64,000 nucleotides of DNA, from positions 79,281-143,280 of the forward strand of contig JAFRVI010000004.1 in NCBI GenBank assembly GCA_017438525.1, read 5' to 3'. Source of the stretch: Clostridia bacterium. GTDB lineage: Bacteria > Bacillota > Clostridia > Oscillospirales > RGIG8002. Both the position numbers and the translations under genes were made by a program. The notes beneath the pieces are model-generated. The model was not told the origin of the DNA. It was given only the letters and a program-made list of their open reading frames with translations, and made no database searches. This document shows positions 128 to 51,299 of the stretch, piece by piece (the first letter of the stretch is position 1; every line of letters begins with the position of its first letter).

Positions 128-141
128 AAGGAGTGAATAAG

Positions 142-7001: not shown

Positions 7002-7002
7002 A

Positions 7003-25006: not shown

Positions 25007-25036
25007 TATAACTCCTCCGGAGAAAAATATCAACTA

Positions 25037-26107
25037 CTAAAAAGTATCAATGAGTTTCGCGACGTAGCGCATAATGATCAGTACGTCCGAAACGGTAACG
25101 ACGCCGTCAAGATCGACGTCGGCGGCTTTACGCTGATTGGCGGTCGGCTTTTTGATACCGAGCGAATAGCGGAGCGCGAGCAGCGCGTCTTCGATATCGG
25201 TCTCGCCGTCCTTGTTCGGATCGCCGAGCGTATAGGTGGGCTTCACGACAGGGAGCTTGATATCCGCAATAAGCGGCCAGTGATCCGACGCCGCTCTGAT
25301 TGCCTCATCCCTGACCTGCGCGGTATGCAGACAGGTGGCTTCAACGCTGCAGAAGATATGGTCAACGCAGCCGCTGATGGGGTTCGGATCGGCATCAAAC
25401 AGAACGTTGCTGTTAGCGATATTCTGATACGGTACCTCGTCGATCGTGGCATTCATATCGCCGGTTGAAATAAACGGGCACTTGTTTTTACTGAGCCAGC
25501 TCTGCGCCTTTTTGATCAGCTCGCCCGCCTGAATGGTTCTCTGCGGAGTATTGTCGCCGCCGGAACCTTCCCAGCCGGAATTGAGGTGAGTCGAGCTTAC
25601 CGCGAACTTTCTGCCGTCGGTCTTGCTCTCGAACAGAGCTATACACATATGGCGCATCTGTATGGCGTTGGATACCGAATACTTATAAAGCTCGGTCTTG
25701 ACGACGTTGTATTTTGTCTTATCATACAAAAGCAGAGAGCAGTTTTCATCGTCCCCCTCTCTTTCGAGATCAGGATAGATAAATTCATACTTATCGCCGA
25801 GCAGTTCGCGGATACCCTCGTGCCAAAGCTTTGAGCACTCTTGCAGACCGACTACGTCCGGTTTGTAATAATTGACAAAATCGGCGAATAACTGCGGACG
25901 TGTGCCAATATTCCACGGGCTCCAGCTGAAGTCTTCCTTTGCGACGAGCACGTTATACGAAATGATTCGTATATCCGCCCCTTCGGCCAGCTGCTCGGGA
26001 TACGTCCCGACGTAGCCGTCGGCGGAAGCGGAAATCGCCGCAGCCGCGGGAAAAGCGGTCAGCAGCAGCGTCAGCGAAAGCAATACTGCAATGATTCTTC
26101 TTTTCAT
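25037..26107 (-). CDS. Secreted EEP (endonuclease/exonuclease/phosphatase) family enzyme with C-terminal dockerin (EEP copy 1)
   Basis: Signal peptide is present. EEP motifs are IISYNVL, GLQEC, STGDMN and SDHWPL. A two-segment dockerin, DPNKDGETDIEDALLALR ... DVDLDGVVTVSDVLIIMR, lies at 25040-25228. Confidence 0.8.
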   Translation of the reverse strand: MKRRIIAVLLSLTLLLTAFPAAAAISASADGYVGTYPEQLAEGADIRIISYNVLVAKEDFSWSPWNIGTRPQLFADFVNYYKPDVVGLQECSKLWHEGIRELLGDKYEFIYPDLEREGDDENCSLLLYDKTKYNVVKTELYKYSVSNAIQMRHMCIALFESKTDGRKFAVSSTHLNSGWEGSGGDNTPQRTIQAGELIKKAQSWLSKNKCPFISTGDMNATIDEVPYQNIANSNVLFDADPNPISGCVDHIFCSVEATCLHTAQVRDEAIRAASDHWPLIADIKLPVVKPTYTLGDPNKDGETDIEDALLALRYSLGIKKPTANQRKAADVDLDGVVTVSDVLIIMRYVAKLIDTF

Positions 26108-26144
26108 AGCGATACCTCCTGAAGAAAAAGAAGATAAGTATTTA

Positions 26145-29100
26145 TCAATCGTTCAGACCGGCGGCTTTGCGGAGTATCCGCAGAGCGTCGGAAACCGTTA
26201 TTTCTCCGTCGCCGTCAAGATCGGCGGCGAGACTCTGATAACCCTCCGGCTCTGCAAGCCCTACGGAAATGCGCAGCGCGGCAAGCGCGTCTGCGACGGT
26301 TATCTCCCCATCTTCGTCAAGATCCCCCATCGTGTAAGGAGGAGGCGTAGTGTCGACGACGATAAACCTAACGGTAGTTGAATACTCGTCGTATCCGTTC
26401 ACGACCTTGAGTTCATATTCGCCGGGCTCGGTCACATCGGCTTCTCCGTAGCGGCGCTCGCCGTTGAGATACGCGATATGCCCACAGTTCCAGGACGCGT
26501 GCACCTGATCGGTGTAAAGGTCGTAAATCGCTCCGTTCTCGACGCCGGTAATAACGGGAGCTCCGAGCGGTACGAATTCGAACTTGGTCGGATTGTTTTC
26601 GGCAAACGTCTGCGCATACGAACCCTCAACGCCGTAGAGCTTGACGATCTTTCTGTTTCCGCCGAAAAGCGTTCCGCTTATAGATGTGACGCTCTCGGGG
26701 ATATATACGGATTCCATAAGGTACTGTGTGCCGAGGTTGGCGCTTACGCTCGTCGTGCCTTCTCTTACGATAAGCTCTCTCGCGCGGTAGTTTCCGTTAA
26801 GCGCGGTGGAAGAAAAGGACGTTCCGTTCCCTACCGTCACGGTGCCGACGCCGGTGTTGCGGAACGCGTAAGTATTGACCGAAGTACCGTCAGGAATATC
26901 CGCGGCGCCGAGCAGTCTGCAGTCGTTGAAAGCGTACTGCCCTATCGTTTTAAGCGATGACGGGAACTCTATTTCGCGCAGCGAGCTGCACGCCTGGAAG
27001 GCGTACTGGTCGATCTTAGTAAGCGTATCAGGCAGCTTAACGGTCATATGATGCACGGTTCGGCCGTAGCCGGCAAAAGCGTACTGCCCGATAACCGTGA
27101 CGGGATATCCTTCTATTTCGTTCGGAATGACGACGTCGCGCAAACCGGAGATACAGTCGGTTATCGTGACCTGCTCGTTATTGATAGAATACATAAACTC
27201 ATCGGTCGCTGTTTTCGTCCCGTCGACAGTAAAGTCGGCCGCAGCGAACGACTTTCCCCGCTCCTCGTCAACAAGCTGCACGCGGTAGCTGCCGCCTTCG
27301 GGAATACGAACCCTGATAAAGCGGGTTAACTTCAGATAATTTGCGTCCGCTTCAAGTGAAAGCAGATTATCCTTATCAAGAGGAATTATCACTTCCGTAT
27401 CGTCGTCAAGGTTCTTCACCCTGACGGACGGATGCTCGTAATAAGGCGAGTTGACGGTTTCAAGATATACGTAGCCGTTACGGTTTATGGTAACGGTATC
27501 CGAGAACTCGTGACCGTCCGCCGAAACCCTGATGAAATCGTAAATAACCGTAGGCCTCGGACCGATCGCGGTCATCATTTTGTCTATCATGTGAGGCGTC
27601 GCGTACTTCATGTAGGCAACCTTCGAGGCGATCCTGTAATACGGCGAAGAGGGACTGAGCCGCGCGACCGCCGCCTGCAGAGCGGATTTGTCATACTCCT
27701 TCGGAAGCGCCCACTTCTGCAGCGAATGCGGATAGGTGCGCTCACCGAAGAAAACGTATGAGCTGTCGGGCGTGAATTTGATGCGCGAAACGATATACCC
27801 CTCGAGGTTGGCGTCGGTCTCTCCCGCTTTCAGCGTTTCGAGATACGTGCCGTCGGACGCAAAGAGCTTTGCGCCGCCGTCGTAAGACGCGACGACTATA
27901 TATTTGCCGTTCGGCGAATACGCGGCTTCTCTGATAACGTTGCCGAAGCCGCCGAGCAGCGAAACTAGTTCACCGCTTTCAACGTCGAACAAGCGGGCGG
28001 CGCCATAGGTGGACGTGCAGAGTATATTCTTATCGTCGGGCGAAAACTCGAGGCGTCTTACCGAACCGGTGTTGACGTTGTTGAGTTTCTTTATAAGCGT
28101 CTTGCTCTCGACGTCCCAAAGGCAGACGACTCCGTTATCGTCCGAGGTGGCGAGAAGGCGTCCGTCCGATGAGAAATCCGCGCCGCGGATCGCTCTGACG
28201 TGGCCTTCGGCAAGGTGAGCGTATTCGGTCCAGTCGGCAACGTTGTAGACAAAAGTACCGTTGCTCGTCGTCGTAACCGCGACTTTTGAACCGTCGTCTG
28301 TGATCGCTATGAAGCGCGGGTCGCTGCCAACGTCGATTTCCTGCAGTTTGGCGCCGGTGGTCGCGTTAAAAACGCGGAACTTCCATTTCCCGGTGCCGTT
28401 TGAATACTTCTGGGAGCCGCCGTTAAATCCGCCCACTATCAAGGCGCTGCTGTCTTTAGTGAATACCACGCTCTCCTGAATGACCGCGCCGTTGTATATC
28501 CTGCGCGGCGCCTTTGTGTAATCGGAGGTATCGAAAACCGCGATATTCCCCTGCGTGGATGCGACCGCAAGCTTGCTGCCGTCGGGAGAATAAAGAACGC
28601 GCAGCGCTCTGTCGAATCCGGTGGAAAGCACGTGCTTCGTCACGTTCGTGACCGGATCCATGATATAGACCTTCTTCATGTGGTCGGCGGAAGCGATCTC
28701 GGTGCCGTCGGGCTTGACGTCCGTCGGGAAGTTTATATCCCAGTAATCGTTGACGGCGACTGCGTTGAGACCGGTGGAATAGTTTACGCTTTCATCGGTC
28801 GTGTAGTCCTCGGTGCCGTCGGTCAGCTCGCCCGCTTCAAGGAAGCAGCGGACGTAGTCGACGTCGATGACGTATTCTTTCTCGGCGCCCCAGGATTCGT
28901 CGACCGTATTGCCCCATGAATCTGATGTCCTTGCGCGCGGTGTGTTATTGAAAACAATATATCTGGCGGTATCGCCGAAGGCAAACTTCTTTCCTTCACT
29001 GTTATAAAGAAGCGAATTGTACTGCATTCCGTCGAAGTAGTACCTGATCATATCGCGGTCCATTTCAAGACCGTAGGTGTGGTAATCGTCGCTCAGGTAC

Positions 29101-30854
29101 TTCTCGCCGTATCCGTTGATATTCATATATATAACCTTGGCCCAGTCCTTTTTGCCCTCGTCATCCGTCCAGTGGACGGTGCCGATGACCGTGCCGTTTT
29201 TGGCTATATCATCTTCGACGACCATTTCCATTATGTCGACTTCGCCGGCGCCCATATTCATCATATCGGTCGGCATAAGCCAGAACGCCGGGAACTGACC
29301 AGTGCCGTACGCCAGCTTTGCGCGGATCTCGATCTTGCCGTAGCCGAACGCAAACTTGCCGCTGGTGTTCATATACGTTCCGGACATTTCATAAGCGTCG
29401 TATCTGCCGTATCTGCCCTTGAAATGCATATTGCCGTCGGAAACGTCGATAAGGTCGTCGTCATCCGGATAAATCGCGCCGTCGGAATAACCGTCGTTCA
29501 CGTTCCACTTGGTGCGGTCGAGCGAGTTGCCGTCAAACTCGTCGCTCCAGCTCTGAACGTATTCTTCTTCAACGACTTTATACAGATAGAACTTTTTATA
29601 CGTCGAACTGGTAGTGGCTTTAACGGTTTCACCCGAAACGGTTAACCTTCCGACATTGCGTACCTGAATAGTCGCCTTTCCACCCGTAATGCTGATAGAC
29701 CACTCTTGGCGCGTGTTATTGAGGTTCGGTTCTTTCGCCTCGATACTTGTGCCGGATTCCGAAATCGTAAGCACGTTTGTGCTCGATTTATTGATTATCC
29801 TAAACGCACCGTTGCCGGAGGGAGACATTGAAAGCTGCCACATCTGCGTGCGGTCGCCTTCCCTGTTTTCTTCAAGCGAGTATTTGAGCGAACTGTCTTC
29901 GATCGCGAGAGTATTGTCTCCCCATCTGATAGCCGTTTCAGGAACGGGAGGCCCGAGTGTTATCGCTTTACCCGAGGAAGACTCAATGATTTTATAGTAT
30001 GCGTTATTGACTATCTGACTGCGGGCGGTGATCTGCGTCTCGGAATAAGCGGTCGCCGCGCTGCTTTCGAGTATCTCATTATAAGCGTTCAGATCCGCAA
30101 CCGAAAACGACGTACCGTTCGACTCTATACGGATATAGTTCATGCTGCCGTCCTTCGCGAGCGGCGAATCGCCTGCTGCAGTAAAGATTTCAAACGGGAT
30201 ATAGATATAACCGAATCCCCATACAACAATATCAGAGGCGGTGTAAGTATAGTTATCCTCGGCCGAACGCAGTCCTATTGTAAAGCTGAAAACGTTGCCG
30301 TCATTCGGCGCGAGCCACAGTTTCAGACCATCCGCCTTCGACATATCAAGGCCGAACGGAGACTGACCGGCGACGCCGCTTCTCGACGCGCCGTTGGAAA
30401 GGACGGTCCCGTTTTCATCTCCACTCACCGAGACGGAAAACTCAACGCCTTCCGGCTTATGCTCTTTGTCGAGAACGGGAGCCGAGGAGGACTCGTTCAT
30501 CGAGGCAAGATCCTCGGACGTCCAGCCGTTGAAGCCGTTAAGCTGAATAAGCTCGACGTCATGCATCGGCTCGAGCATATTCTCGGCGTTTTTGACCTCG
30601 TTAAATGCGGCTTCGCGTTCTTCGTCGGTCGCAAGGTCGTTATACGCCGCAAAAGTAGCTTCCCATCTCTCGATGCGGTCGGCGAGGTATTTTCTCGACT
30701 GCTCGCTGTAACCTTTATAAAGAAGGGATCTGGCGTAAGCATATTCGTCGATCGCTTCCGGCTCGTCAGCGCCGACGGTCACCGCCGCCGAAAACGGCAG
30801 CATAGAAAGCGCGAAAGCAAGCGTAAGCAGTATGGCGATGAGTCTTCTTTTCAT
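26145..30854 (-). CDS. Giant secreted multidomain protein, paralogue 1 of 4: ricin-type lectin + GH16 + WD40/PD40 propeller + BspA-type LRR + dockerin
   Basis: 1,569 aa. Signal peptide MKRRLIAILLTLAFALSMLPFSA. Two QxW motifs (QMWQLS, QEWSIS). GH16 elements WSDEFDG...GKIEIRAKL...FPAFWLMP...GEVDIMEM. Propeller repeats YSPDGSKLAVAS, FSSDGRLLATSDDNGVVCLWDV and FSPDDKNIL...ARLFDV. LRR elements IEGYPVTVIGQYAF and LPDTLTKIDQYAFQACSSLREIEFP. The dockerin is at the C-terminus. A GGAGG RBS precedes the start. Confidence 0.85.
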   Translation of the reverse strand: MKRRLIAILLTLAFALSMLPFSAAVTVGADEPEAIDEYAYARSLLYKGYSEQSRKYLADRIERWEATFAAYNDLATDEEREAAFNEVKNAENMLEPMHDVELIQLNGFNGWTSEDLASMNESSSAPVLDKEHKPEGVEFSVSVSGDENGTVLSNGASRSGVAGQSPFGLDMSKADGLKLWLAPNDGNVFSFTIGLRSAEDNYTYTASDIVVWGFGYIYIPFEIFTAAGDSPLAKDGSMNYIRIESNGTSFSVADLNAYNEILESSAATAYSETQITARSQIVNNAYYKIIESSSGKAITLGPPVPETAIRWGDNTLAIEDSSLKYSLEENREGDRTQMWQLSMSPSGNGAFRIINKSSTNVLTISESGTSIEAKEPNLNNTRQEWSISITGGKATIQVRNVGRLTVSGETVKATTSSTYKKFYLYKVVEEEYVQSWSDEFDGNSLDRTKWNVNDGYSDGAIYPDDDDLIDVSDGNMHFKGRYGRYDAYEMSGTYMNTSGKFAFGYGKIEIRAKLAYGTGQFPAFWLMPTDMMNMGAGEVDIMEMVVEDDIAKNGTVIGTVHWTDDEGKKDWAKVIYMNINGYGEKYLSDDYHTYGLEMDRDMIRYYFDGMQYNSLLYNSEGKKFAFGDTARYIVFNNTPRARTSDSWGNTVDESWGAEKEYVIDVDYVRCFLEAGELTDGTEDYTTDESVNYSTGLNAVAVNDYWDINFPTDVKPDGTEIASADHMKKVYIMDPVTNVTKHVLSTGFDRALRVLYSPDGSKLAVASTQGNIAVFDTSDYTKAPRRIYNGAVIQESVVFTKDSSALIVGGFNGGSQKYSNGTGKWKFRVFNATTGAKLQEIDVGSDPRFIAITDDGSKVAVTTTSNGTFVYNVADWTEYAHLAEGHVRAIRGADFSSDGRLLATSDDNGVVCLWDVESKTLIKKLNNVNTGSVRRLEFSPDDKNILCTSTYGAARLFDVESGELVSLLGGFGNVIREAAYSPNGKYIVVASYDGGAKLFASDGTYLETLKAGETDANLEGYIVSRIKFTPDSSYVFFGERTYPHSLQKWALPKEYDKSALQAAVARLSPSSPYYRIASKVAYMKYATPHMIDKMMTAIGPRPTVIYDFIRVSADGHEFSDTVTINRNGYVYLETVNSPYYEHPSVRVKNLDDDTEVIIPLDKDNLLSLEADANYLKLTRFIRVRIPEGGSYRVQLVDEERGKSFAAADFTVDGTKTATDEFMYSINNEQVTITDCISGLRDVVIPNEIEGYPVTVIGQYAFAGYGRTVHHMTVKLPDTLTKIDQYAFQACSSLREIEFPSSLKTIGQYAFNDCRLLGAADIPDGTSVNTYAFRNTGVGTVTVGNGTSFSSTALNGNYRARELIVREGTTSVSANLGTQYLMESVYIPESVTSISGTLFGGNRKIVKLYGVEGSYAQTFAENNPTKFEFVPLGAPVITGVENGAIYDLYTDQVHASWNCGHIAYLNGERRYGEADVTEPGEYELKVVNGYDEYSTTVRFIVVDTTPPPYTMGDLDEDGEITVADALAALRISVGLAEPEGYQSLAADLDGDGEITVSDALRILRKAAGLND
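26148..26333 (-). other. Dockerin module of paralogue 1
   Basis: Two EF-hand-like segments: GDLDEDGEITVADALAALR and ADLDGDGEITVSDALRILR. Confidence 0.8.
26625..27197 (-). other. BspA-type leucine-rich repeat (LRR_5-like) region of paralogue 1 (residues ~1220-1410)
   Basis: Repeating (I/L)P..(V/L)..I...AF..C..L..(I/V) units, for example LPDTLTKIDQYAFQACSSLREIEFPSSLKTIGQYAFNDCRLL. Confidence 0.75.
27705..28757 (-). other. WD40/PD40-type beta-propeller region of paralogue 1 (residues ~700-1050)
   Basis: Seven to eight ~40-45-aa repeats, each with an SPDG/SSDG/TDDG turn followed by a hydrophobic strand and x(F/W)(D/N)V endings. Confidence 0.7.
28839..29567 (-). other. GH16 catalytic module of paralogue 1 (residues ~430-672)
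   Basis: WSDEFDG start. ExDxxE catalytic motif EVDIME is encoded at 29226-29243. The module ends ...YVIDVDYVRCF. Confidence 0.8.
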
Positions 30855-30912
30855 AGTTTACCTCCGTTTCTTTTGCGGAAAAGACGAAGTAATAATTTGA
30901 GTTGATTGACGA

Positions 30913-33900
30913 TTATTGTTCAAAGGGAGCGTCAATCTTCGCGGCGACGCGAAGGATGCGGAGCACGTCGGAAACTGTCACTTCGCCGTCTTTGTCGACG
31001 TCGGCGGCCTCCGCCTGATAGCCCTCCGGCTCGACGATCCCGAGTGCTATGCGGAGCGCCGTGAGCGCGTCGGTAACCGTGACTTCTCCGTCGTCGTCAA
31101 CATCACCAATAGTGTACGGAGGAGGCGTCGTATCGACGACCGTGAAGGTCACGGTCGTTTTATACTCGTCGTAGCCGTTTATAACTTCGAGCGTGTATTC
31201 GCCGGGCTCGGTCACGTCGGCGTGTCTGTAGCACGCTTCGCCGTTGAGGTATCCGATGTGTCCGTTTTCCCACGTCGCTGAAACGGGCGCTTCATAGAGG
31301 TCGTAGGTCGCGCCGTCTTCGACTCCGTGAACGATGGGAGCGCCTATCGGAACAAATATAAACTTTGTCGGATACGACTCGGCGTAAGTCTGCGCATAGC
31401 TTCCCTCGACGCCGTAGATCTTGGCAAGGTATTTTGTGTGCAGATCGCTTACGTTATTGTCTACAAAACTGTAAATACCGCCGCTTATGGAAGTTACGCT
31501 CTCGGGAATATAAACAGCTTCGAGAAGATACTGAGAAGAAATATTGAGCGAGAGACTTTGTATTCCGTCAGCAACGATTATTTCTCTTACGCGCGACATA
31601 CCGGAAAGAGCGCCGCTTGCGATACCCGATCCGGAGTTGAGCTTTATAGTTCCGACGCCGGCGTTGTTAAAAGCGTTGGAACTGACGGTCGTGCCGGCGG
31701 GAATATCAACGACGCTGAGCAGTCTGCATCTGCTGAAAGCGTACTGTTCTATCTTTTCAAGTCCTGCGGGGAACTTTATCTCGCGCAGAGACCAGCAGTT
31801 ATAGAATGCGTAACTGCCGATAACCTTAAGCGTGTCGGGAAGCGTAACGGCCATATGCATAACGTTGGTTCCGTAGCCGTCGAAAGCATAAGAACCGATC
31901 TTGGTGACCGGGTACCCCTCTATCTCACTCGGAACAACGACGTTGCGCCTTCCGGAGATGCACTTCGTTATCGTGACCTCTCCGTCCTTTATAGAATAGA
32001 GGAATCCTTCCGCGGCGGTAGCGTCACCGTTGACGGCAGCGCTTGCCTTCGGGAACGCCTTGTTGGAATCAAGGCCGACAAGTTCGAACTCGAATACGCC
32101 TGCTTCCGCCATCTTGACCTTGAAATCGTAACGGCAATACGCCTCAATTTCGTCGTTTTCATTATAATCCATAAAGAATCCGGCGTCGTCCGCGGGAATA
32201 AGCTCGCTTGTGCCGTCATCGGTATTCGTAATCTTAAGCGCGAGATCCGCGTATTCCGGAGACGCTCCTGCAGTAACGTAGACGAACGCGTTTTTATTGA
32301 CGGTAACGCTCGGCGGCGTCGTGTATCTGTCGGGAGAAACGCTGATGAATTCGTCGGTCTTCGCCGTTCCGCCGATGCCGGTATACGCCTTGTAGATCAT
32401 CTGCGGAGTAGCATACTTCAAGCCGGCAATCTTCGCGGCGTAAGCGTATTCGGGCGTGGTCTTGTCCGCGCAGTTGCTCATGGCAAGCTTAAGCTGCGTT
32501 TTGTCGTACTGCTTAGGAAGATCCCACTTCTGCACCGCGTACGGATCGGTACGAGTGGTGAACATAACGTAATCGTCCTTATACGGCGAAAACTTGATGC
32601 GGGAAAGAATGAAACCCTCGCCGTTCTCGTCGGTCTCTCCCGCTTTCAGCGTTTCGAGATATGTGCCGTCTGCGGCGAAAAGCTTCGCGCCGCCGTCATA
32701 GGAAGCGACGGCGATATATTTGCCTTCCGTCGAATAGGTCGCCTCGCGGATGACATTGCCGAAGCCGCCGAGCAGCGAGATAAGCTCTCCGCTCTCGACC
32801 TCAAACAGACGCGCGGCGCCGTAGGTCGCGGTCGCGAGGACGTTCTTATCGTCCGGCGAGAAGACTACGCGCCTTACCGAGCCGGAGTTGACGTTGTTGA
32901 GCTTCTTGTTGAGCGAAAGATCGGAAACGTTCCAGACGTTTATGACGCCCTTGTCGTCGGAAGTCACGAGCAGGCTGCCGTCCGAAGAAAAGTCGGCGCC
33001 GCGGATCGCTCCGTCGTGGCCTTCGGTTATATGGCCGTATTCGCTCCAGTCGGAAACGTTATAGATGAACGTGCCGTTGCTTGTTGTAGTTACCGCTACT
33101 TTAGAACCGTCGTCGGAGAGCGCTATGAAGCGCGGATCGCTGCCGACGTCTATATCCTGAAGCTTCGCGCCGCTCGAGGCGTCAAAGACGCGGAAATGCC
33201 ACTTTTCAGTTTTGCCGCCGGTCTGCGGATTCTGATACGCCTGCGAGCCGCCGTTGTAACCGCCGACTATCAGGTATTTACTGTCCGGCGTAAACAGAAC
33301 GTTCTCTTGAATAACGGCGCCGTTATAGATTCTGACCGGCGTGTTATCGTAATTGGAAGTATCATAAATCTGTATGCATCCCTGCGTATTTGCGACAGCG
33401 AGTTTCGTGGCATCCGGCGAATACAGAACGCGGAAGGATCTGGTGTACTTAGACATCGCAGAAGCAAGGTTGATGTATTTGAGTGTTTCTCCGGTATACG
33501 GATCGAATATGTAGAGATTTGAGAAATGATCCGCCGCGGCGCCTTCGTTGCCGTAGCAGTTGATATCCATCGGCATATTGATATCCCACGCGTCGTTGGT
33601 GGCAACGGCCTCTATGCCGGATGAATAGTTGACGCTGTCGTCAGTCGTGAAGTCGACGGTATTATCGCTCATTTCACCGGCTTCAAGATAGCATCTGACG
33701 TAGTCTATCTGGGTTTCGTATTTATCCTCGAGACCCCACGCTTCTCTGACGATGCTTGCGCCGTCGCCTTTGGTGGAGTTATTTATGATGATATATCTTG
33801 CGATATCTCCGAAGGCGAATTCCTTGCCTTCGCTGTTTATCACGAGCGAATTGTACTGCATCCCGTCAAAGTAGAATCTTATCTGATCGCGATCCATCTC

Positions 33901-35691: not shown

Positions 35692-35750
35692 AATCGTCCC
35701 TCCGTTCAAAGCGTTGAGAATAATTAAATGATAGTACTTAATTATAGGGT

Positions 35751-39698: not shown

Positions 39699-39752
39699 GT
39701 TTTTGCCTCCTGAAAATATATTTAATTATTTTACTCGCAATATAAGCAGCCG

Positions 39753-40586: not shown

Positions 40587-40594
40587 AGGCGTTA

Positions 40595-41716
40595 TTACTT
40601 CTTCGAGTAGAGATAGAGCAAACCGGCCGCAAGAGCAAGACCGATAAGGACCGCGATAGCGACACGCAGCGCGGATACCGGCGACTTTCCGCCGACCTTT
40701 CCGGTTTCGCCGTTGACCATGAATTGAAATATCTTCTCTTTAAATTTGAACGAAGAAAGCCATACGGGCAGCAACAGGTATTTATACTTAATATCGAAAT
40801 ACTTAGTCGCCATTCTGACGTTGTTGACGTGATCGGCGTGGTGCGCTCTGCGGACTTGATCAGTAATATCGGATTCAAGGCGGGAGGAAATGAAACCTTT
40901 TCCCTTCTCCCACGCGTCGTTGAGCCCGATGGAATAGCGCTCGGAAATGAATCCCGCTATGTATTCGGGCTTGTACTTCTTATTATTCGCGGTATCATAC
41001 GGCTCGATCGAACGAAGCGTCGCCTCGTTATAACGCGTGGTGCCGCAGACGGCCTGATCGTCTATGAAGCAGGAATAATGCCCGGAGGTGTTGTACCACG
41101 TCGTGGTTGTGTGAGTATTTCCGTTGCTGTCTGTGTATGTGTGGTCAATGCCGTAGCGGGCGGTATAGTCCGTCTCGGTCTGTGAATCGAACGTCCAGTA
41201 AGGCAGATAAACGCCTTTGAAAGATTCGGGTCGGGCGCTCTGCTTCGCTTTTGACGGGCAGAAAAGCTTTTTCTTGATCCACGCGGTGAATCTTTCGCCT
41301 GCGGTCTTCGCGTCGATCCTGAAGGGGCAAACGCCGCCCGGGGCAAGCGTGTTGACCGCGGCCTCCTCCATAACCTGATTCGAGCCGCAGTAGGGGCATA
41401 CGTCAGCTATCTGCAGCGCGTCGTAAATCGATTCGCCGCCGCAGGATTTGCAGATGACGGTCTTCTTCTCGACGCCCCAGTCGCAGTTTCCCCTTTCGGC
41501 CGCCGAGTAGAAATCCTGCTCCATGCAGCGTTCCTCGTTCGACTCATGAGGCGGTATCGCCTGCTGATGCCCGCAGTACGGACAAAGCAGTCCGCCGGAA
41601 ACCGGATCGAAATCCATAACGCCGCCGCAGGACGGACACTTCTTGTCCGTCTCTTCCCTCGTTGTCGTTTGCTGGATCACTTCGACTTCATTGTTGTACT
41701 CGTTAACGTCGCTCAC
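40595..41716 (-). CDS. Tail-anchored protein with two N-terminal zinc ribbons (function unknown)
   Basis: CPSCGG...CPYCG and CKSCGG...CPYCG motifs. A single C-terminal TM helix (AIAVLIGLALAAGLLYLY) lies 3 residues from the end. I prefer GTG 41716, 8 nt after GGAGG. The ORF-track start is the TTG at 41743. Confidence 0.65.
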   Translation of the reverse strand: MSDVNEYNNEVEVIQQTTTREETDKKCPSCGGVMDFDPVSGGLLCPYCGHQQAIPPHESNEERCMEQDFYSAAERGNCDWGVEKKTVICKSCGGESIYDALQIADVCPYCGSNQVMEEAAVNTLAPGGVCPFRIDAKTAGERFTAWIKKKLFCPSKAKQSARPESFKGVYLPYWTFDSQTETDYTARYGIDHTYTDSNGNTHTTTTWYNTSGHYSCFIDDQAVCGTTRYNEATLRSIEPYDTANNKKYKPEYIAGFISERYSIGLNDAWEKGKGFISSRLESDITDQVRRAHHADHVNNVRMATKYFDIKYKYLLLPVWLSSFKFKEKIFQFMVNGETGKVGGKSPVSALRVAIAVLIGLALAAGLLYLYSKK

Positions 41717-41757
41717 TTGGTGTTCCTCCAGACTATTTTTCAAATATTATTTATAAA

Positions 41758-44700: not shown

Positions 44701-46500
44701 ATCGAGCGAAACTTTGTTTTCCGAATAGATATACAGCGGTTTCGCCCAGTTTTTCTTTCCGCTCGCGTCGCTCCAGTGGAACGTCGCTATCTGCTGACCG
44801 TAAAGGTCGTCGCCGTATTTTACGTAATCTTTGTGCTGAACAGGCATTTCCATAAGGTCGATCTCGGAGCGCGCCATATTCATCGAATCGACCGGCATAA
44901 GCCAGATCGCAGGCCACATTCCCATGCCCTTCGGCATTTTCGCTCGGATCTCGAATCTGCCGTAGGTCATCGCGTATTTGCCGTTCGTCTTCAGGTGCGG
45001 CGCTTTGGACTGGTAGCCGTTATAATCGCCGGCGTAAGTGCGGAGTATGAGGTTGCCGTCCTCGAGAAATGCGGTGTCGTCGGAATCGACGTAGAGCGCG
45101 CTGTTGCCGCCGCCGAAGAAGAACCCGCTGTCCGCCTGCCAGATGGATCTGTCAAGCGTTTCGCCGTCGAATTCGTCGCTCCAGGTGCTGACATAATCTC
45201 CGTCGTGTACTTTGCAGATTATAAACTTCTTATATGCCGATCCGTTCGTTGCTTTCAGCGTAGTGCCGGTATACGTCAGCTTGCCGACGCTTCTGACCTG
45301 TATTGTGAACTCTCCCTTCGCGGCGGAAAGCGCGAATTCCTCGTAAATATCGTTATAGTCGACCTTGTCGAAAGAGACCGATGCGGCGGAAGGTATTCTC
45401 ATCGCGCACGCGCTGGCCTTGTTGATTATTCTGAACGTTCCGTTCCCGGAGGGATCCGGCGAAAGCTGCCAGAGCTGAGTAAGCAGACCTTCTTCAGCCG
45501 GCTCGATACTGAAAGACATACTTTCATCTTTCGTATTTATAGCGCCTTCCCAAAGAAGCGCCGTCTCATCCGGAACCGGACCGAGCGTGAGCGCTTTGGG
45601 AGAATCGGTTCCGTAGGAATCAACGGTATAAATCTTGTAATAAGCGTTGTCCTCTATCGCGCCCCTTGAAGTTATTTTTTCTTCGGAATAGGGCTTGCGG
45701 TTTGAAACGTCGACGATTTCGCGGTAGGCGCAAAGTCCGGCGATACGAAGCACGGAGGCGCCCTCGCACTCGACGCGAATACTGTTCATTAGGCCGTTGG
45801 TTTCGATCTCAGCGCCGTCGTCGAACGGAACGAAGAAGTAATACGGAACGGTGATATATCCTTCACCCTCAACGGGAATATCCGAAACGGCGAGCGAATA
45901 ACCGCCGGATGCTGAAACCTTGCCGACGGTAAGCGCGAGGGTTGAAGGCGCGTCAACGCTCACCCAGAGGCGTAAGCCGTCAGTATCGGAGGCGTCCATG
46001 CCGAAGGGGGAAACGCCGGCAATCCCGCCGGGAATAGAGTTATCGTAAACGAGAACGCCGTCGCCGGATATTTCGACCGACTGCGCCGCGCCTTCCGGCT
46101 TATGCTCCGCGTCGAGACGAAGCGCGCCGACCGAGGAAGACATCTGAGCGATATCGGCGTCTGTCAGCGTGTCAAACGAAAGCTGCCTGACGTCCTCTCT
46201 GCCCTTCATGGGCGCGAGCAGTTCGATTCCGGAGGAAAGCTCGGAGATGAGCGCGGCAAGCTCATCTTCCGCGGCAAACCGATTATACAACGCCGCTTCT
46301 GCGCGAAGATATCTGTCGTAAAGATATTTCTCCGTCTGCTCGCTGTTGTCTTTAAAAAGCAGCGGGCGTACGGACTCCATCACGACGGAAAGCTGCTGAC
46401 GCAGTTGATCCGACGGCGCGTCCGCGGAAATCACCGCGGACGGAAGCAGCGATATCGCAAACGCGAATATCACGATGGCGGTAATGGCTCTTTTAATCAT
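41758..46500 (-). CDS. Giant secreted multidomain protein, paralogue 3 of 4 (same architecture)
   Basis: 1,580 aa, collinear with the other three. GH16 motif EIDLME is at 44848-44865 and the dockerin at 41761-41937. A GGAGG RBS precedes the start. Confidence 0.85.
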   Translation of the reverse strand: MIKRAITAIVIFAFAISLLPSAVISADAPSDQLRQQLSVVMESVRPLLFKDNSEQTEKYLYDRYLRAEAALYNRFAAEDELAALISELSSGIELLAPMKGREDVRQLSFDTLTDADIAQMSSSVGALRLDAEHKPEGAAQSVEISGDGVLVYDNSIPGGIAGVSPFGMDASDTDGLRLWVSVDAPSTLALTVGKVSASGGYSLAVSDIPVEGEGYITVPYYFFVPFDDGAEIETNGLMNSIRVECEGASVLRIAGLCAYREIVDVSNRKPYSEEKITSRGAIEDNAYYKIYTVDSYGTDSPKALTLGPVPDETALLWEGAINTKDESMSFSIEPAEEGLLTQLWQLSPDPSGNGTFRIINKASACAMRIPSAASVSFDKVDYNDIYEEFALSAAKGEFTIQVRSVGKLTYTGTTLKATNGSAYKKFIICKVHDGDYVSTWSDEFDGETLDRSIWQADSGFFFGGGNSALYVDSDDTAFLEDGNLILRTYAGDYNGYQSKAPHLKTNGKYAMTYGRFEIRAKMPKGMGMWPAIWLMPVDSMNMARSEIDLMEMPVQHKDYVKYGDDLYGQQIATFHWSDASGKKNWAKPLYIYSENKVSLDEDYHDYAVEIDTDQVRMYFDGALIVTLNLVNDGIRFAYGDVPRYIILSSGGIQGDDYCVVYPQYEYYDREMVVDYVRVSVREEQFTDSTPDFTTDHSVQKASAVEYMGRNYNSFMYNFPMAISPDGTQAVMADQAGFLCVYDPRTNELLDTVSTEKYNAFLSVAYSPDGSKVAAATMTGSVIIYDTSDFSKSPVKIHNGATMQYSLCFTADGQHIITGGFNGGAQALKNPINSSVTEPHYLRVFNAVSGAKEHELFVESDPLSIDLSPDGTKLAATTTSAGIFIFNTGDWSEYARFTTEHINTINRCRFSPDGTLLATADEAGEVVFWNVADKVAVSRLDTVNESSVRTLSFSPDGRYIVTNSNDTAARVYSVESGRCVSLLGGFDGIINEAAYSPDGKYIVVSSFDHTLKLFAADGTYISTLLQKNDLQSEGHVSSAICFTPDSKYVLCTEISLPCCVNRWELPKNVDKSALKAAIDEYEEQDEKLENAQKVCSLKYATSTMVSMAVADLTGESAAATFRAVSVSADAADYAASANVFRDGWIYVKADVSILADNVFVEILNTAEESSVRIPAGQIKMGGELIDAPYESVLMRTYIEKAGNYRIRLVNADTGEVSSAVTVSVDENATTRDFLYTVNSDDTVTINSCKSGAEYLYIPDYIDGYPVTKIADYAFANYGRTVRHMKLRLPATLKRIGNYSFSECASLEELELPEGLEYIGQYAFQRCLSLACVEIPDSVTTLSSNAFHYVRGARYVKIGGGLTTVPGNTFPSSIGNRCYIFAEGVKTINANVSNLAFLLERVYIPRSATTVNANCLRGPYYTVKVYGYPGTAAETYAATSDKLVFVPLAAPVISGVEDGETYDLYDGAVSATWDDGHVAYLNGEYYDAGKPITQPGEYTLKVVNGYDEFTTEVSFTVVDTTPVPGDADGDGEITVSDALLTLRAAARLYAPSEKVTAAIDLDGDGEITVADALAVLRKAIGL

Positions 46501-46554
46501 ATTGTCCTCCGTTCCGAACGCATAGCGTTCATTTATCTGTCAAACGGTTTCAAC

Positions 46555-49500
46555 TCAATCAAGACCGACGGCGATCCTCAAAACCGCCAGGGCGTCGGCA
46601 ACGGTTATTTCTCCGTCGCCGTCAAGATCAATGGCGGCTATCACTTTCTCCGCGGGAGCGTAAAGCCGCGCCGCGGCGCGGAGCGTAAGCAGCGCGTCGG
46701 AAACGGTAATGACTCCGTCGCCGTCGGCGTCGCCCCTGAGCGGAGTGGTATCGACAACGGTAAAGCTGACTTCGGTCGTGAACTCATCATATCCGTTGAC
46801 GACCTTCAGCGTATATTCGCCGGGCTCGGTAATCGGTCTGCCGGCGTAGTAGGTCTTTCCGTTCAGATACGCAATATGACCGTCATCCCAGGACGCCGCG
46901 ACAGATCCGTCATAAAGGTCGTAGGTCTTCCCTTCCTCAACGCCGGTGATCGCCGGAGCCGCAAGCGGCACGAACTCAAAGCGCGCGTCCGAAGCGGCGA
47001 ATGTTTCCGCGTAGGTCCCGGGATATCCGTAAAGCTTTACGGTACCGAGCATATTCGATATGAAATTTCTGTTCATATTCGTCATACTGCGCGGAACGTA
47101 CACTCTTTTTATAAGTCTGGCGTTGGACGAAATATACCCCTGAACGGTCTGCACTCCCTCATCAAAGATGAAGCAGCGGTTGCTGACCGTCATATAGAAA
47201 GTATTGCCCGAAACGTTTTTAAGACCGCTTCCGATCTTTATATACGACGTGCCGCGGGCGTAATAGAAAGCGTTGTATCCGAGCGTTCGGACGCTCGACG
47301 GAACGTCGATGTGCGCCAGCGACAGGCATCTGCCGAACGCGTATGTTCCTATCGATTCAAGTCCGTTCGGGAGATCGAGCTCCTCAAGCGAGGTGCATTC
47401 GTAGAAGGCGTATGCGCCGATGGTTTTCAAAGTCGACGGGAGACGGAGCTTCATGTGCAGCACGGTCTGGCCGTAGTTCTGGAACGCGTAGTCGCCTATC
47501 GCGGTCACGGGATAACCATCGATATAGTCGGGAATATAAACCGATTCGGTTCCGCACTTGGCGCCGGTTATCGTGACCTCGCCGCCGGATACCGTGTAGA
47601 AGAAATCGCGGGTAGTCGCAACATCGCTCACGCTGACGGACGCGCTCACGGAAACTTCGCCGTCGGAATCAACGAAATATACCGTGTATTCGCCTTCGGT
47701 GATATGCGTTCTCAAAAGAAGTCTGACGTAACCGTCGCCCGCGTCGTCATACGAAATCTTGAATTGATCGACGGGCATTTCGACCGGAAGCTCGCCGTTC
47801 TTTTTGATAACGACAGAGGGCTCGCACGCGCGCGAAACCTCGGCGCTTATATAAAGCCAACCGCCGCGGTATATCGAAGCGGATTCCGCGAAGGATTCGC
47901 CGTCCGCCGAAACGGATACGGTTCTGAAAGAAGCCGGAAGCGCGGTACCGGTCAGCGCGGCGGCCGCTGAAGCGACCGACTTCGCGGAAGCGTGCTTCAT
48001 AGCGTAGACCGCTTTCGCGTTCTCAAGCTCGGGCGACTGCCCGGAGCAGGCATCGATCGCGGCCTTGAGGACGGATTTGTCGACCGCCTGAGGCAGCTCC
48101 CATCTGTTGACGCAGGACGGGAAAGAATAACTCGACGTATAAACGTATTTACCGTCGGGAGTGAAGCATATCTTAGACGCGATGTGACCGTAATTGGATT
48201 GGCCGCCGGGAATCAGAGTGCTTACGTAAGTCCCGTCCGCATAGAAAAGCTTCATCGTCCTGTCAAGCGAAGCCGCGGCGATGAATCTGCCGTCCGGCGA
48301 ATACGCGACCTCGTGGATCTGTCCGGAAAAGCCGCCGAGCAGCGATACGCAGCGTCCGCTTTCAACGCCGTAAACGCGGGCGGCGCTGTCGGTGCAGGTG
48401 GTAACTATGTATTTTCCGTCCGGAGACCAGGCGAATTTCCTGACCGAGCTTTCGTTGACGGTATCGAGTCTGCGCACGGCGTTTTTACCGGCAACGCTCC
48501 AGATAACGACTTCGCCCGCTTCGTCAGAGGTCGCAAGCAGCGAACCGTCCGGAGAAAAGCGGCAGAACTGCACGGTGTTCACGTGTTCGGTCGTGAAGTG
48601 AGCGTATTCGCTCCAGTCGTCGACGTTGAAAACAAACACGCCGGCGCTCGTGGTGGTAACCGCAAGTTTGCTTCCGTCCGGCGAAAGATCGGCGGAGAGC
48701 GGGTCGCTTTCAACGAATATCTCATTTTCAAGCGCGCCGGTAGAAGCGTTGAAAACTCTGATATAATGCGCTTTAGTAACCGAGCTGTTATTGGGGTTCT
48801 GCAACGCCTGCGCACCTCCGTTAAAGCCGCCGGCGATCAGATGTTCGCCGTCTTTTGTGAAGGCGAGACAGTAATGCATAGTAGCGCCGTTGTTGATCCT
48901 GACGGGCGCTTTTAAGAAATCGGAAGTATCGTATATTACCGCGCAGCCGTTCATAGTGCCGGCCGCGAACTTTTTGCCGTCCGGAGAATACGCGGCGCTG
49001 ATAAACGCCCTGTAGTTTATCGTGGTGGGCACCGTCCGAAGGACCTCGCCCGTGCGCGGATCGAAAACGCAGAGTATGCCGGACTGATCCGCCATTATCC
49101 CCTGCGTTCCGTCCTGAGAAATATCCATCGGGAAGCTGGACATAAAGAAGTTGGAATCCCTGCCGAGATACTCGACGCCCTGCGACGTAACGGTGGAATA
49201 CTCGGAAGTGAAATCCGGCGTATCGTCTGTTCCCTGCTCGGAGCGGATATAGGCGCGGACGTAATCGACGCGGAGTTCCTTGTCGCCGTAATATCTGTCG
49301 GGATCAAGGACGGCGCTGCTGATTCCTTCGATGCCGCCGGAGGAAAGAATGATATACCTCGCGACGTCGCCGTACGCGAATTTCTTTCCGTCGTCGTCGA
49401 GATTGAGCGACATACACAGCGCACCGTCGAAATACATACGCACCTGATCGGTATCCAGCTCAACCGTATAAGTGTGATAATCGTTCGCGAGATCCTCGAA

Positions 49501-51243
49501 ATTCTCGGCGTATATATCTACGCGTTTATCAAGGTATTCAGTCCCGGCCGGATTCGTCCAGTGCAGAGTTCCGATCTGCCTGGCGTAGAGCTTGTCGCCC
49601 TGGCTGTCGTATTCGTCGGCGGTGACGGGCATTTCCATAAGGTCTATCTCGGAACGAGCCATATTCATCGAGTCGACCGGCATCATCCAGAGCGCGGGCC
49701 ACATACCGAATCCCTTCGGCATCTTGGCGCGTATCTCTACGCGTCCGTAACTTATAGCGTACTTGCCGCTGGAAAGAATATGCGGAGCGACGGACTCGTA
49801 GCCGTTATGATCTCTGTTGAGCGTTCTCAGGACGAGATCGCCGTCTTCAACGAAGGCGGTCTCTTCTGAATCGATATAAAGCGCGGTGTTTTTTCCGCCG
49901 AAGAAGAATCCTGTGTCGGCGCGCCAGATGTTAGAGTCGAGCTTGTCGCCGTCGAACTCATCGCCCCACGTCTGTACGTACCCGCCGTCGTTGACCTTGC
50001 AGACGACAAACTTCTTAAAGGAGTTGGAAGCCGTGCCTTTGACCGTCGTACCCGCGTAAGTAAGCTTCGCAACGCCGCGCACCTGTATGGTGAATTCGCC
50101 TCTTGAAACGGTGAGACCGAATTCCTGCGTCGTATCGTTATAATCGATCGTGTCATATGTAAGCACCGTCGCGGCGTTACCCATCGTCATGGCGTAGGCG
50201 GTGGCTTTGTTGATTATCCTGTAAGTCGAATTACCCGACGGGTCCGGCGTAAACTGCCAGAGCTGCGCCGGATCGCCCTCCGCCGCGGGTTCAAGCGTGA
50301 AAGCGTAGTTGTTCTGCTGGAGGGTTATTGTTACCGCTTTCGGATCATCGGTGCCGTAGGAATCAACGGAGTAGATTTTATAATAAGCGTTATCGACGAT
50401 TCCGCCTCTGGTCGTGATGCGTTCTTCGGAATATGGCGTTTTTCCGGAAATGTCGACGGTCTCGCGATAAGCGTGGAGATCCGCGATATAAAGCGTATCC
50501 GCGCCCTCACATGCGATGCGGATATAGTTCATCAGCCCGTCGGTCTCGATCCGAGCGCCGTCCGTGTCGGGAACGAACATATAATACGGGATCGTTATAT
50601 ACCCTTCGCAGTCAACAGGAATACCTGAAGCGGTAAGCGAATAGCAGCCGGCCTCGGCGCGCTTGCCTACGGTCAGAGAAACAATTGCGGGCGCGTCGGC
50701 GGATATCCAAATACGAAGTCCGTCCGTATCGAACATATCCATACCGAACGGAGAGGCACCGGAAACGCCGCCTTCAACGGAGTTGTCGTATACGATGCCG
50801 CCGTCGGAAACGATCTTAAGCGACTGCCTCGCGGCTTCCGGTTTATTCACGGCGTCAACGCTGACGACGCCGACGCTGTTTGCCATAAGCGCGATATCAT
50901 CGGCAGTGATATAATCGAACGACATAAGCCGGACGCGCTCACTGCCCTTCATCGGCGCGAGGAAGTCGACTCCGTTACACACGTCTTCCAGAAGCCCGTA
51001 AAGCGTTTCCGCGTCGGCGCTACCTTCAAACAGCGCCGCCTCCGCGCGAAGAATCCGGTCATAAAGATACTTCTCGGTCTGCTCGCTGTTGTCTTTATAA
51101 AGCAGCGAATGCGCGAACTCAATCGCTTCCGAAAGCTGCGCACGGAGCGCGTCGGTATCACCTTCGGCGTGTATCCACGCGGAAGGAAACAGCGAAGCCA
51201 GCATGGCGATTATTATAAGCGCGGTAATCGTCTTTTTAACCAT
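46555..51243 (-). CDS. Giant secreted multidomain protein, paralogue 4 of 4 (same architecture)
   Basis: Collinear with paralogue 3. GH16 motif EIDLME is at 49633-49650 and the dockerin at 46558-46737. ATG 51243 (GGGGTGA RBS) is preferred over the GTG at 51252. Confidence 0.85.
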   Translation of the reverse strand: MVKKTITALIIIAMLASLFPSAWIHAEGDTDALRAQLSEAIEFAHSLLYKDNSEQTEKYLYDRILRAEAALFEGSADAETLYGLLEDVCNGVDFLAPMKGSERVRLMSFDYITADDIALMANSVGVVSVDAVNKPEAARQSLKIVSDGGIVYDNSVEGGVSGASPFGMDMFDTDGLRIWISADAPAIVSLTVGKRAEAGCYSLTASGIPVDCEGYITIPYYMFVPDTDGARIETDGLMNYIRIACEGADTLYIADLHAYRETVDISGKTPYSEERITTRGGIVDNAYYKIYSVDSYGTDDPKAVTITLQQNNYAFTLEPAAEGDPAQLWQFTPDPSGNSTYRIINKATAYAMTMGNAATVLTYDTIDYNDTTQEFGLTVSRGEFTIQVRGVAKLTYAGTTVKGTASNSFKKFVVCKVNDGGYVQTWGDEFDGDKLDSNIWRADTGFFFGGKNTALYIDSEETAFVEDGDLVLRTLNRDHNGYESVAPHILSSGKYAISYGRVEIRAKMPKGFGMWPALWMMPVDSMNMARSEIDLMEMPVTADEYDSQGDKLYARQIGTLHWTNPAGTEYLDKRVDIYAENFEDLANDYHTYTVELDTDQVRMYFDGALCMSLNLDDDGKKFAYGDVARYIILSSGGIEGISSAVLDPDRYYGDKELRVDYVRAYIRSEQGTDDTPDFTSEYSTVTSQGVEYLGRDSNFFMSSFPMDISQDGTQGIMADQSGILCVFDPRTGEVLRTVPTTINYRAFISAAYSPDGKKFAAGTMNGCAVIYDTSDFLKAPVRINNGATMHYCLAFTKDGEHLIAGGFNGGAQALQNPNNSSVTKAHYIRVFNASTGALENEIFVESDPLSADLSPDGSKLAVTTTSAGVFVFNVDDWSEYAHFTTEHVNTVQFCRFSPDGSLLATSDEAGEVVIWSVAGKNAVRRLDTVNESSVRKFAWSPDGKYIVTTCTDSAARVYGVESGRCVSLLGGFSGQIHEVAYSPDGRFIAAASLDRTMKLFYADGTYVSTLIPGGQSNYGHIASKICFTPDGKYVYTSSYSFPSCVNRWELPQAVDKSVLKAAIDACSGQSPELENAKAVYAMKHASAKSVASAAAALTGTALPASFRTVSVSADGESFAESASIYRGGWLYISAEVSRACEPSVVIKKNGELPVEMPVDQFKISYDDAGDGYVRLLLRTHITEGEYTVYFVDSDGEVSVSASVSVSDVATTRDFFYTVSGGEVTITGAKCGTESVYIPDYIDGYPVTAIGDYAFQNYGQTVLHMKLRLPSTLKTIGAYAFYECTSLEELDLPNGLESIGTYAFGRCLSLAHIDVPSSVRTLGYNAFYYARGTSYIKIGSGLKNVSGNTFYMTVSNRCFIFDEGVQTVQGYISSNARLIKRVYVPRSMTNMNRNFISNMLGTVKLYGYPGTYAETFAASDARFEFVPLAAPAITGVEEGKTYDLYDGSVAASWDDGHIAYLNGKTYYAGRPITEPGEYTLKVVNGYDEFTTEVSFTVVDTTPLRGDADGDGVITVSDALLTLRAAARLYAPAEKVIAAIDLDGDGEITVADALAVLRIAVGLD

Positions 51244-51299
51244 ATCAGTCACCCCGTTAAATCAGTCTTTCAATCCGTTCGGTTAAAGCGGAAAAAGAA

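Follow-up and report, generated by a model that had tools for sequence, protein, structure and literature searches.

Cellulosome gene clusters of the rumen bacterium Ruminococcus flavefaciens FD-1 encode secreted multimodular proteins with a terminal dockerin, including many leucine-rich repeat (LRR)-dockerin and glycoside hydrolase family 16 (GH16)-dockerin proteins, and contain runs of adjacent paralogues that carry the same dockerin type (PMC2930009). Three other kinds of described proteins are relevant to the present work: GH16 laminarinases such as those of Thermotoga (PDB 3AZX and 4DFS) and Zobellia (LamA, 4CRQ); BT3783 (PDB 4C1R), a sugar phosphatase (mannosyl-6-phosphatase) of the yeast-mannan utilization locus of Bacteroides thetaiotaomicron (PMC4978465); and YdjG (SamG) of Bacillus subtilis, which belongs to the pspA-ydjGHI membrane-stress operon (PMC8581546, PMC9239133). 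Here, we analyzed a locus with partial likenesses to all of them, located in a 64,000-nt stretch of DNA from a Clostridia bacterium (contig JAFRVI010000004.1). This whole stretch is hereafter the window, and all coordinates are window positions. Within the span 25037-51252, eight minus-strand open reading frames (ORFs), all co-directional, encode four giant multidomain proteins (G1 to G4), three proteins with an EEP phosphoesterase domain (EEP1 to EEP3, whose domains are denoted E1 to E3), and a zinc-ribbon protein (ZR). Gene order and positions, as given by an initial annotation made from the sequence, match the ORF positions exactly:

25037-26107, minus strand: EEP1, 356 aa; signal peptide, EEP domain, and dockerin (Pfam)
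26145-30854, minus strand: G1 (A-type giant), 1569 aa; GH16, RicinB_lectin_2, WD40, LRR_5, and Dockerin_1 (Pfam)
30913-35709, minus strand: G2 (A-type giant), ORF of 1598 aa
35751-39698, minus strand: CBMx6-EEP2 (EEP2 for short), 1315 aa; signal peptide, six CBM_4_9 carbohydrate-binding modules (CBMs), EEP domain, Big_3, and dockerin (Pfam)
39753-40586, minus strand: EEP3, 277 aa; N-terminal hydrophobic anchor and EEP domain, without dockerin
40595-41743, minus strand: ZR, 382 aa; two Cys4 ribbons and a C-terminal transmembrane helix
41758-46500, minus strand: G3 (B-type giant), 1580 aa
46555-51252, minus strand: G4 (B-type giant), 1565 aa

We interpret the locus as a tandemly grown, cellulosome-targeted array of an uncultured, spore-forming rumen Clostridia bacterium. 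This reading, which joins an evolutionary and a functional part, has in our estimate a probability of about 0.72, and its statements on function all rest on similarity. Counting the flanking genes described below, it forms a tightly packed, co-directional minus-strand run of ~31 kb, which begins near 52.1 kb and ends near 20.8 kb. The giant family split long ago into the A and B types. In the window lineage, a single in-place duplication of each type then produced G2-G1 and G4-G3. Both events are older than the radiation that gave rise to at least four species-level relatives, and no sign of later gene conversion is seen. The EEP genes would be an accessory layer of this clade alone, the content of which still varies (EEP3 lost in one near-conspecific and a varying number of CBMs in EEP2). 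Together with the downstream alkaline phosphatase, the EEPs would probably strip phosphate or phosphodiester groups off the same glycan-rich target, and the dockerins would gather giants and EEPs on one scaffoldin. The host is regarded as a spore former because SpoIVA is encoded at window positions 124-1620.

The mechanism, in which genes for cellulosomal proteins duplicate in tandem and then diverge, is ordinary, and the locus shares with the FD-1 clusters its rumen setting, the secreted multimodular proteins with a terminal dockerin, the presence of LRR-dockerin and GH16-dockerin proteins, and the adjacent paralogues with a common dockerin type. In contrast to FD-1, however, CBM11-like, RicinB, GH16, WD40, LRR_5, Ig-like, and dockerin modules are combined in one protein of ~1570 aa, which is not listed there, and neither WD40 nor phosphatase modules occur in the text of that paper (PMC2930009).

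Phylogeny of the giant paralogues

By-eye comparison had suggested that G1 and G2, on the one hand, and G3 and G4, on the other, are closest to each other, as expected from an older split followed by tandem duplication within each lineage. Global amino acid identities were 60.7% for G1/G2 and 62.7% for G3/G4, versus 40.9 to 43.9% for the cross-pairs, and within-pair identity exceeded cross-pair identity in nearly all 60-aa windows, with a few exceptions where the proteins diverge most, near residues 80 to 140 and 1155. Trees were inferred by neighbor joining on corrected p-distances from 23 to 29 database and locus homologues and were rooted on two relatives of 29 to 30% identity. They grouped G1 with G2 and G3 with G4, the A-type and the B-type clade each having 100% bootstrap support. 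Each paralogue also had an orthologue clade of its own among other rumen MAGs (metagenome-assembled genomes), with bootstraps of 100% for G1, 95% for G2, 100% for G3, and 100% for G4, so that each tandem duplication is older than the separation of at least four species-level relatives. As for G4, it grouped at 100% with the G4-position gene of locus L001, the pair being sister to the G3 clade, and it has a 93% identical orthologue in L098. Both the topology and the proposed sequence of events are thus upheld by the trees and the orthologue clades. Two points weigh against this part of the reading: the node uniting G1 and G2 as sisters reached just 60% once protein P0007 was included, and the trees are neighbor-joining rather than maximum-likelihood reconstructions. 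The peptide motifs quoted for the two pairs are all present, although SVDSYGTD.PKA, given as common to G3 and G4, is exact in G4 only and reads TVDSYGTDSPKA in G3.

Third-codon-position identity at conserved residues was 0.4 to 0.7 over the full length of both G1/G2 and G3/G4, with no tract of low divergence, and the duplications are old, local, and tandem, with saturated synonymous sites. Gene conversion was considered for the two most conserved stretches, i.e., the G1/G2 lectin (85 to 89% amino acid identity) and the G3/G4 dockerin (~90%), and was rejected; synonymous third positions there (0.40 to 0.58) are as diverged as elsewhere. Because third positions are diverged throughout, the conservation of these stretches points to purifying selection and not to recent conversion.

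The members of a pair differ in their conservation among relatives. The G2-position gene (L002, 5178-9947, and L009, 10311-15080, each compared with window G2) is only 62% identical between species in which G1, G3, and ZR share 83 to 88%, and G4-position genes are 65% identical where G3 reaches 81%. One member of each giant pair has either evolved far faster or been replaced.

Array organization in relatives

The order Cgs-DUF4886-G4-G3-ZR-EEP3-EEP2-G2-G1-EEP1-Lgt-FolD-AlkPhos, in which the outer names denote the flanking genes listed further below, is complete in four species-level lineages. Other lineages carry arrays of other shapes. That of L007 consists of DUF4886, one B-type giant, ZR, and two A-type giants. 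In the tree, the B-type gene of this array diverges ahead of the G3/G4 split (89% bootstrap), and its two A-type genes form a clade of their own (86%), which indicates an independent duplication. Contigs L099, L006, L005, and L008 overlap at 92 to 99.7% identity; by chaining them across samples, we infer an array of at least four A-type giants, ZR, and one more A-type giant. Given that the family grew to 1+2 or to at least 4+1 in other lineages, the 2+2 layout of the window is one lineage-specific outcome of recurrent tandem duplication and not a designed unit.

Synteny in L001, L007, and L098 places the DUF4886 gene next to a giant both in the window clade and in L007, whose array is distant, and ZR lies inside every array with enough sequence context. 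A metagenome scan with a family-specific alignment returned three loci only, among them L096, which lacks EEP3.

Domain architecture and predicted function of the giants

G1 to G4 (1565 to 1598 aa) share one domain order: signal peptide, three-helix bundle, CBM11-like sandwich, RicinB lectin, GH16, WD40 propeller, a variable module, BspA-type LRR_5 repeats, Ig-like module, and type I dockerin. No Pfam family matched the N-terminal ~260 aa. A structural model of this region, with a predicted local distance difference test (pLDDT) score of 88.7, shows the three-helix bundle and, after it, a beta-sandwich. In fold, the sandwich comes closest to CBM11 and CBM30, two cellulosomal modules that bind beta-glucan, at modest similarity (target template modeling [TM] score of ~0.5, E of ~1e-4). 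With a cut-off of 22 bits, the GH16 profile (PF00722) matched G1 at 43.9 bits and G3 at 43.5. Its E-x-D-x-x-E motif reads EVDIME in G1, EIDIME in G2, and EIDLME in G3 and G4, and E538, D540, and E543 do not vary across nine members of the family, among them the outgroups of 29 to 30% identity. The closest solved structures are all laminarinases, with best PDB matches to 4dfs and 3azx (E = 1e-18). The giants are at most ~30% identical to generic GH16 proteins and, in contrast to those enzymes, carry the domain embedded in a giant multidomain chain. Judging from the intact laminarinase-type GH16 motif, the CBM11-like module, and the ricin lectin, the giants are probably beta-1,3(/1,4)-glucan-directed enzymes and binders. 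Dockerin_1 (PF00404) exceeded its cut-off in two of the giants (31.9 bits in G1 and 29.2 in G3) and two of the EEP proteins (39.5 in EEP1 and 24.9 in EEP2), and both copies of the D-x-D-x-DG loop can be recognized in the sequences.

The module at residues ~1040 to 1200, between the WD40 propeller and the LRRs (window ~27250-27740 in G1), shows 26 to 39% identity among the paralogues. Between orthologues with flanks of 70 to 90% identity, it falls to 30% (G4 versus L001) and even to 19% (G2 versus P0014). This module may be a specificity-determining region.

A family search over 5.8 billion proteins recovered ~26 clusters with the giant architecture, every one of them metagenomic and the named ones from Clostridia MAGs. 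The sole GTDB representative with the family is the goat-rumen MAG RGIG3742, and a contig scan with a whole-giant alignment fixed on the GH16 motifs returned nearly only generic GH16 genes besides RGIG3742. As judged from sequence, these searches show the giants to be one small family (~30 protein clusters, all metagenomic) found only in ruminant-gut metagenomes. As far as they show, neither the giant architecture nor the CBM4_9-EEP-dockerin enzyme has been described, and both are limited to a small set of Clostridia from the ruminant gut. The giants form a very narrowly distributed extracellular family of rumen Clostridia, which joins a laminarinase-type GH16, WD40, and BspA-type LRRs and has undergone lineage-specific expansion.

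EEP domains and predicted activity

Exo_endo_phos (PF03372) was above the cut-off in all three EEP proteins (45 bits in EEP1 and 44 in EEP3). For EEP3, the Pfam scan revealed the EEP domain only and no dockerin. The metal-binding and catalytic residues N24, E62, H145, D186, N188, D218, H219, D244, and H245 are invariant. The model (pLDDT of 85.8) has the four-layer alpha/beta fold and superimposes with a TM score of 0.71 on both 3g6s and BT3783 (4c1r). The latter appears to be the nearest characterized structural neighbor; it shares the EEP fold with its Mg-binding and catalytic residues and is likewise encoded among glycan-degrading genes. It differs in being only 19% identical and in its periplasmic location, whereas the window EEPs are Gram-positive proteins linked to a dockerin or to CBM4_9 modules. 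Foldseek placed 3g6s, 4c1r, and 3mpr on top, with nocturnin and TDP2 within two orders of magnitude, and a profile search gave E = 2e-7 for 4c1r and 2e-10 for nocturnin.

In EEP2, Tandem Repeats Finder detected a 447-bp tandem repeat at 38208-39266 (~2.4 copies, 79 to 83% nucleotide identity), which corresponds by position to CBM4_9 units 2 to 4 (protein repeats starting at residues 188, 337, and 486). EEP2 orthologues measure 1175 to 1464 aa (L002, L089, L091, L092, and L096); judging from these lengths, they would carry ~5 to 7 CBM units.

Among relatives of the EEPs, fusions with CBM4_9, with a CE2 esterase, and with a dockerin occur. This repeated joining of one EEP subfamily to carbohydrate-binding and esterase modules hints at a dephosphorylation step in glycan breakdown by Gram-positive fiber degraders. 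Going further, the EEPs and their CBM4_9-, CE2-, or dockerin-fused relatives could be an undescribed class of carbohydrate-active phosphoesterases. With the giants and the dockerin-linked alkaline phosphatase, they would make up a cellulosome-borne kit against the phosphorylated, beta-glucan-rich walls of rumen eukaryotes (fungi, yeasts, and protozoa) or against anionic, phosphoglycerol-substituted beta-glucans. We regard this extension as speculative and its correctness as doubtful.

Some relatives have unusual architectures. P0075 is a lipoprotein-like protein of 1108 aa with three tandem EEP domains. P0080 combines an EEP domain with a CE2 esterase, an Ig-like module, and a dockerin, its C-terminal Ig-like-plus-dockerin cassette resembling by eye that of the giants. 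P0095 holds three CBM4_9 modules, EEP, CE2, Big_3, and choline-binding repeats. Most of the remaining relatives have an unannotated N-terminal domain of ~300 aa.

Association of the EEPs with the giants

The recurrence of giants followed by EEP genes had been taken in the initial annotation as a sign of functional coupling. Part of this survives. The genes are packed co-directionally with intergenic gaps of 3 to 58 bp across the array, and the survey of synteny found the complete order in four close lineages. EEP2 carries six CBM4_9 units as well as a dockerin of the G1/G2 type (65 to 68% identical to those of G1 and G2, which share 73%). Coupling is also favored by the lack of a strong terminator ahead of 20843-20812, by the alkaline phosphatase that closes the run (weak match to the N-terminal module of the giants and a dockerin half-repeat), by the module fusions of EEP relatives, and by the structural likeness to BT3783. 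The conservation in four species reflects shared ancestry and not independent recurrence. None of the distant arrays held an EEP gene: it is absent from L007, L003 to L006, L008, and L099, as far as these contigs of 8 to 14 kb show, and an EEP at an unseen array end is possible. Giants without a nearby EEP, which had been named as a finding that would speak against the pairing, thus do occur within these contigs. The database orthologues of EEP1 are all at least 80% identical and those of EEP3 at least 67% (full length), and the databases held no orthologue of EEP1, EEP2, or EEP3 with the divergence expected of distant lineages. In the near-conspecific L096 (JAEEGL016873278.1, 1-4432), whose G1 is 94.7% identical, EEP3 is absent; ZR ends at 874, and EEP2 starts at 908.

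The main alternative is that the EEPs are unrelated in function to the giants, being extracellular nucleases or cellulosomal lipid phosphoesterases, and owe their position to the build-up of an island of dockerin genes. The EEP-free arrays of distant relatives and the dispensability of EEP3 in L096 favor it, as does the closest EEP outgroup, the dockerin-EEP protein P0078, whose locus has no giants. R. flavefaciens has tandem clusters of unrelated dockerin genes (PMC2930009), and the EEPs have weak NCBIfam matches to the extracellular nucleases ExeM/NucH and MnuA. The housekeeping genes for Lgt and FolD lie in the same gene run, so that co-direction and tight spacing by themselves do not prove shared function. 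Two of these points, namely the nuclease matches and the housekeeping genes, also weigh against our reading of the locus, together with four others: the distant arrays lie on short contigs, the EEP fold matches nocturnin and TDP2 nearly as well as the sugar phosphatase, CAZy-type modules are present in only ~5 of the 72 close representatives of the EEPs, and the 64-kb window contains no cohesin or scaffoldin gene. Conversely, the points that speak against a functionally unrelated EEP set are the six CBM4_9 units and the G1/G2-type dockerin of EEP2, the relatives fused to CE2 esterases and CBM4_9, a glycan phosphatase as the apparent nearest characterized structure, and the closely spaced order kept in four species. 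On balance, we consider this alternative rather unlikely. The EEPs are best described as accessory, clade-specific additions that plausibly act on the same substrate as the giants, and a functional coupling of the two has roughly even odds.

Origin of the apparent EEP mosaic

The EEP copies had also been described as mosaic, with E2 resembling E1 at the N terminus and E3 in the center. Over the whole domain, identities are 55.6% for E1/E2, 44.2% for E2/E3, and 40.2% for E1/E3. The uneven similarity is real. A two-breakpoint maximum chi-square analysis of nucleotide site patterns detected significant clustering of conflicting patterns: in columns ~105 to 133, E2 agrees with E3 (statistic of 21.8, reached in 1 of 300 permutations), and E2/E3 nucleotide identity peaks there at 0.69, versus 0.53 for E1/E2. 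Both observations favor EEP2 as a true recombinant, with an N-terminal part from the EEP1 lineage and a center copied from EEP3 by gene conversion.

Trees, polarized sites, and synonymous sites argue against such an origin. The trees included 19 outgroup EEP domains found by exhaustive profile search, a word-indexed search having yielded members of the same clade only. E1 and E2 grouped in 200 of 200 bootstraps with the whole domain and in 200 of 200 with the N-terminal third. The central 58 columns yielded no supported E2+E3 clade and favored no grouping (E1+E2 in 49 of 200 replicates, E2+E3 in 48, and E1+E3 in 33). When sites were polarized with the outgroups, E1+E2 shared 14 derived states, E2+E3 a single one, and E1+E3 two, and 10 of the 11 polarizable agreements between E2 and E3 were ancestral. 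The motif common to E2 and E3 (RLIDxGVFERISDG) is itself ancestral; its pattern R-L-I/L-x-x-G-V-F-E is also found in P0078, P0082, P0085, and P0087 (e.g., RLINLGVFKR in P0078 and RLLNIGVFERLSDGKRFIV in P0087), whereas all EEP1 orthologues have the derived MRHM(C/A)IALFE at this position. Sites at which E1 alone differs are concentrated in the center (16 of 58 columns, versus 12 of 202 elsewhere), and synonymous third positions show no excess of E2/E3 matches there (20/33 versus 38/74; Fisher P = 0.41). A recombinant EEP2 is therefore highly improbable.

The domain sequences show a history that reads as (E3,(E2,E1)), with EEP3 branching earliest. On the simplest reading, the mosaic look would stem from accelerated divergence of EEP1 in one central segment of ~55 residues after the E1/E2 duplication, because EEP1 diverged fast there, in contrast to EEP2 and EEP3, in which the ancestral state was retained. 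The case is a worked example of how rate heterogeneity in one paralogue can imitate a mosaic. As for duplication of a whole block of two giants and an EEP, in which same-position genes would be the closest relatives, the repeated order of two giants followed by an EEP is in its favor, but it is already refuted by the trees: adjacent giants are the closest paralogues (61 to 63%, versus 41 to 44% for positional partners, with both type clades at 100%), and E1 and E2, the EEPs with the highest mutual identity, lie on either side of one giant pair. The array should not be taken to indicate recombination or a fixed module of giants and EEPs.

The zinc-ribbon gene

ZR has >3200 homologues at 55 to 65% identity over Lachnospiraceae, Oscillospiraceae, Christensenellaceae, and other Clostridia. 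The possibility that ZR is the true conserved partner of the giants was rejected, given these thousands of Clostridial homologues without giants. Its match to the TFIIB zinc ribbon is weak (22 bits; cut-off, 29). In both of two other Clostridia inspected, a homologue lies directly 3′ of a Band_7_1 (SPFH) gene (L094, 8001-9119, and L095, 8001-9107). Judged by domain make-up and gene neighborhood, ZR may resemble B. subtilis YdjG: both would be membrane proteins with a TFIIB-type zinc ribbon, and the position of ZR homologues after a Band 7/SPFH gene recalls the linkage of ydjG with ydjI. In contrast, ZR has no SPFH partner in the window and sits between giants. ZR is best seen as a widespread Clostridial membrane protein, a resident gene around which the array grew.

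Flanking genes and other features of the window

Five further genes flank the eight ORFs:

52222-59625, minus strand: cyclic beta-1,2-glucan synthase (Cgs/NdvB) homologue, 2467 aa
51300-52043, minus strand: DUF4886 protein, 247 aa (Pfam DUF4886, 233 bits; PDB 4i8i, E = 4e-41)
24083-25033, between EEP1 and the alkaline phosphatase gene: Lgt, named via Pfam LGT on orthologues
23223-24083, between EEP1 and the alkaline phosphatase gene: FolD, named via Pfam THF_DHG_CYH on orthologues
20861-23230, minus strand: alkaline phosphatase (AlkPhos), 789 aa (Pfam Alk_phosphatase, 138 bits)

The names Lgt and FolD come from the Pfam families of orthologues of 83 to 98% identity and not from the window copies. 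The Cgs/NdvB homologue matches PDB 8rf0/8rf9 (E = 0, 1088 bits) and, with its middle domain, 8wy1 (E = 4e-117). Its Pfam domains are the GH94 catalytic domain, the GH94 supersandwich, and Glycoamylase. A homologue from Thermoanaerobacter has been characterized (PMC11842490). The gene is located directly upstream of DUF4886 and the giants, an adjacency kept in L001 and L098. Residues 375 to 522 of the alkaline phosphatase weakly match the N-terminal CBM11-like module of the giants (8.6 bits, with the hallmark positions SPF...D.S..DG and LP(F/Y)..F), and residues 749 to 788 form a single dockerin-like repeat at the C terminus. Its counterpart in L096 has 947 aa and contains an insertion that resembles the CBM region of EEP2.

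A consensus match to a promoter-like site at 52126-52098, upstream of the DUF4886 gene, weakly supports this gene as the putative first one of the transcription unit, and a consensus scan, likewise weak support, placed a single strong minus-strand terminator (hairpin, 20843-20812) after the alkaline phosphatase gene. The true start of G2 is likely the ATG at 35691, which would give 1592 aa, because the near-identical database copy P0010 begins with MKRKLIAI. G3 is identical to P0021, i.e., GenBank MBQ6552145.1, the sole annotation of which is "leucine-rich repeat protein" and which belongs to a MAG bearing the name "Clostridia bacterium," and the accessions of G1 and EEP3 are five and two below this number. 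Long plus-strand ORFs run antisense to the giants within 26478-48915, e.g., at 31327-33522 (731 aa) and 46102-47970 (622 aa); we assume that they are stop-poor shadow frames and not genes. Finally, a GHL10 (glycosyl hydrolase-like 10) protein is encoded at 5709-7118 on the minus strand, ~18 kb from the array, amid housekeeping genes for a MurC-like ligase, CoaX, and a flippase.

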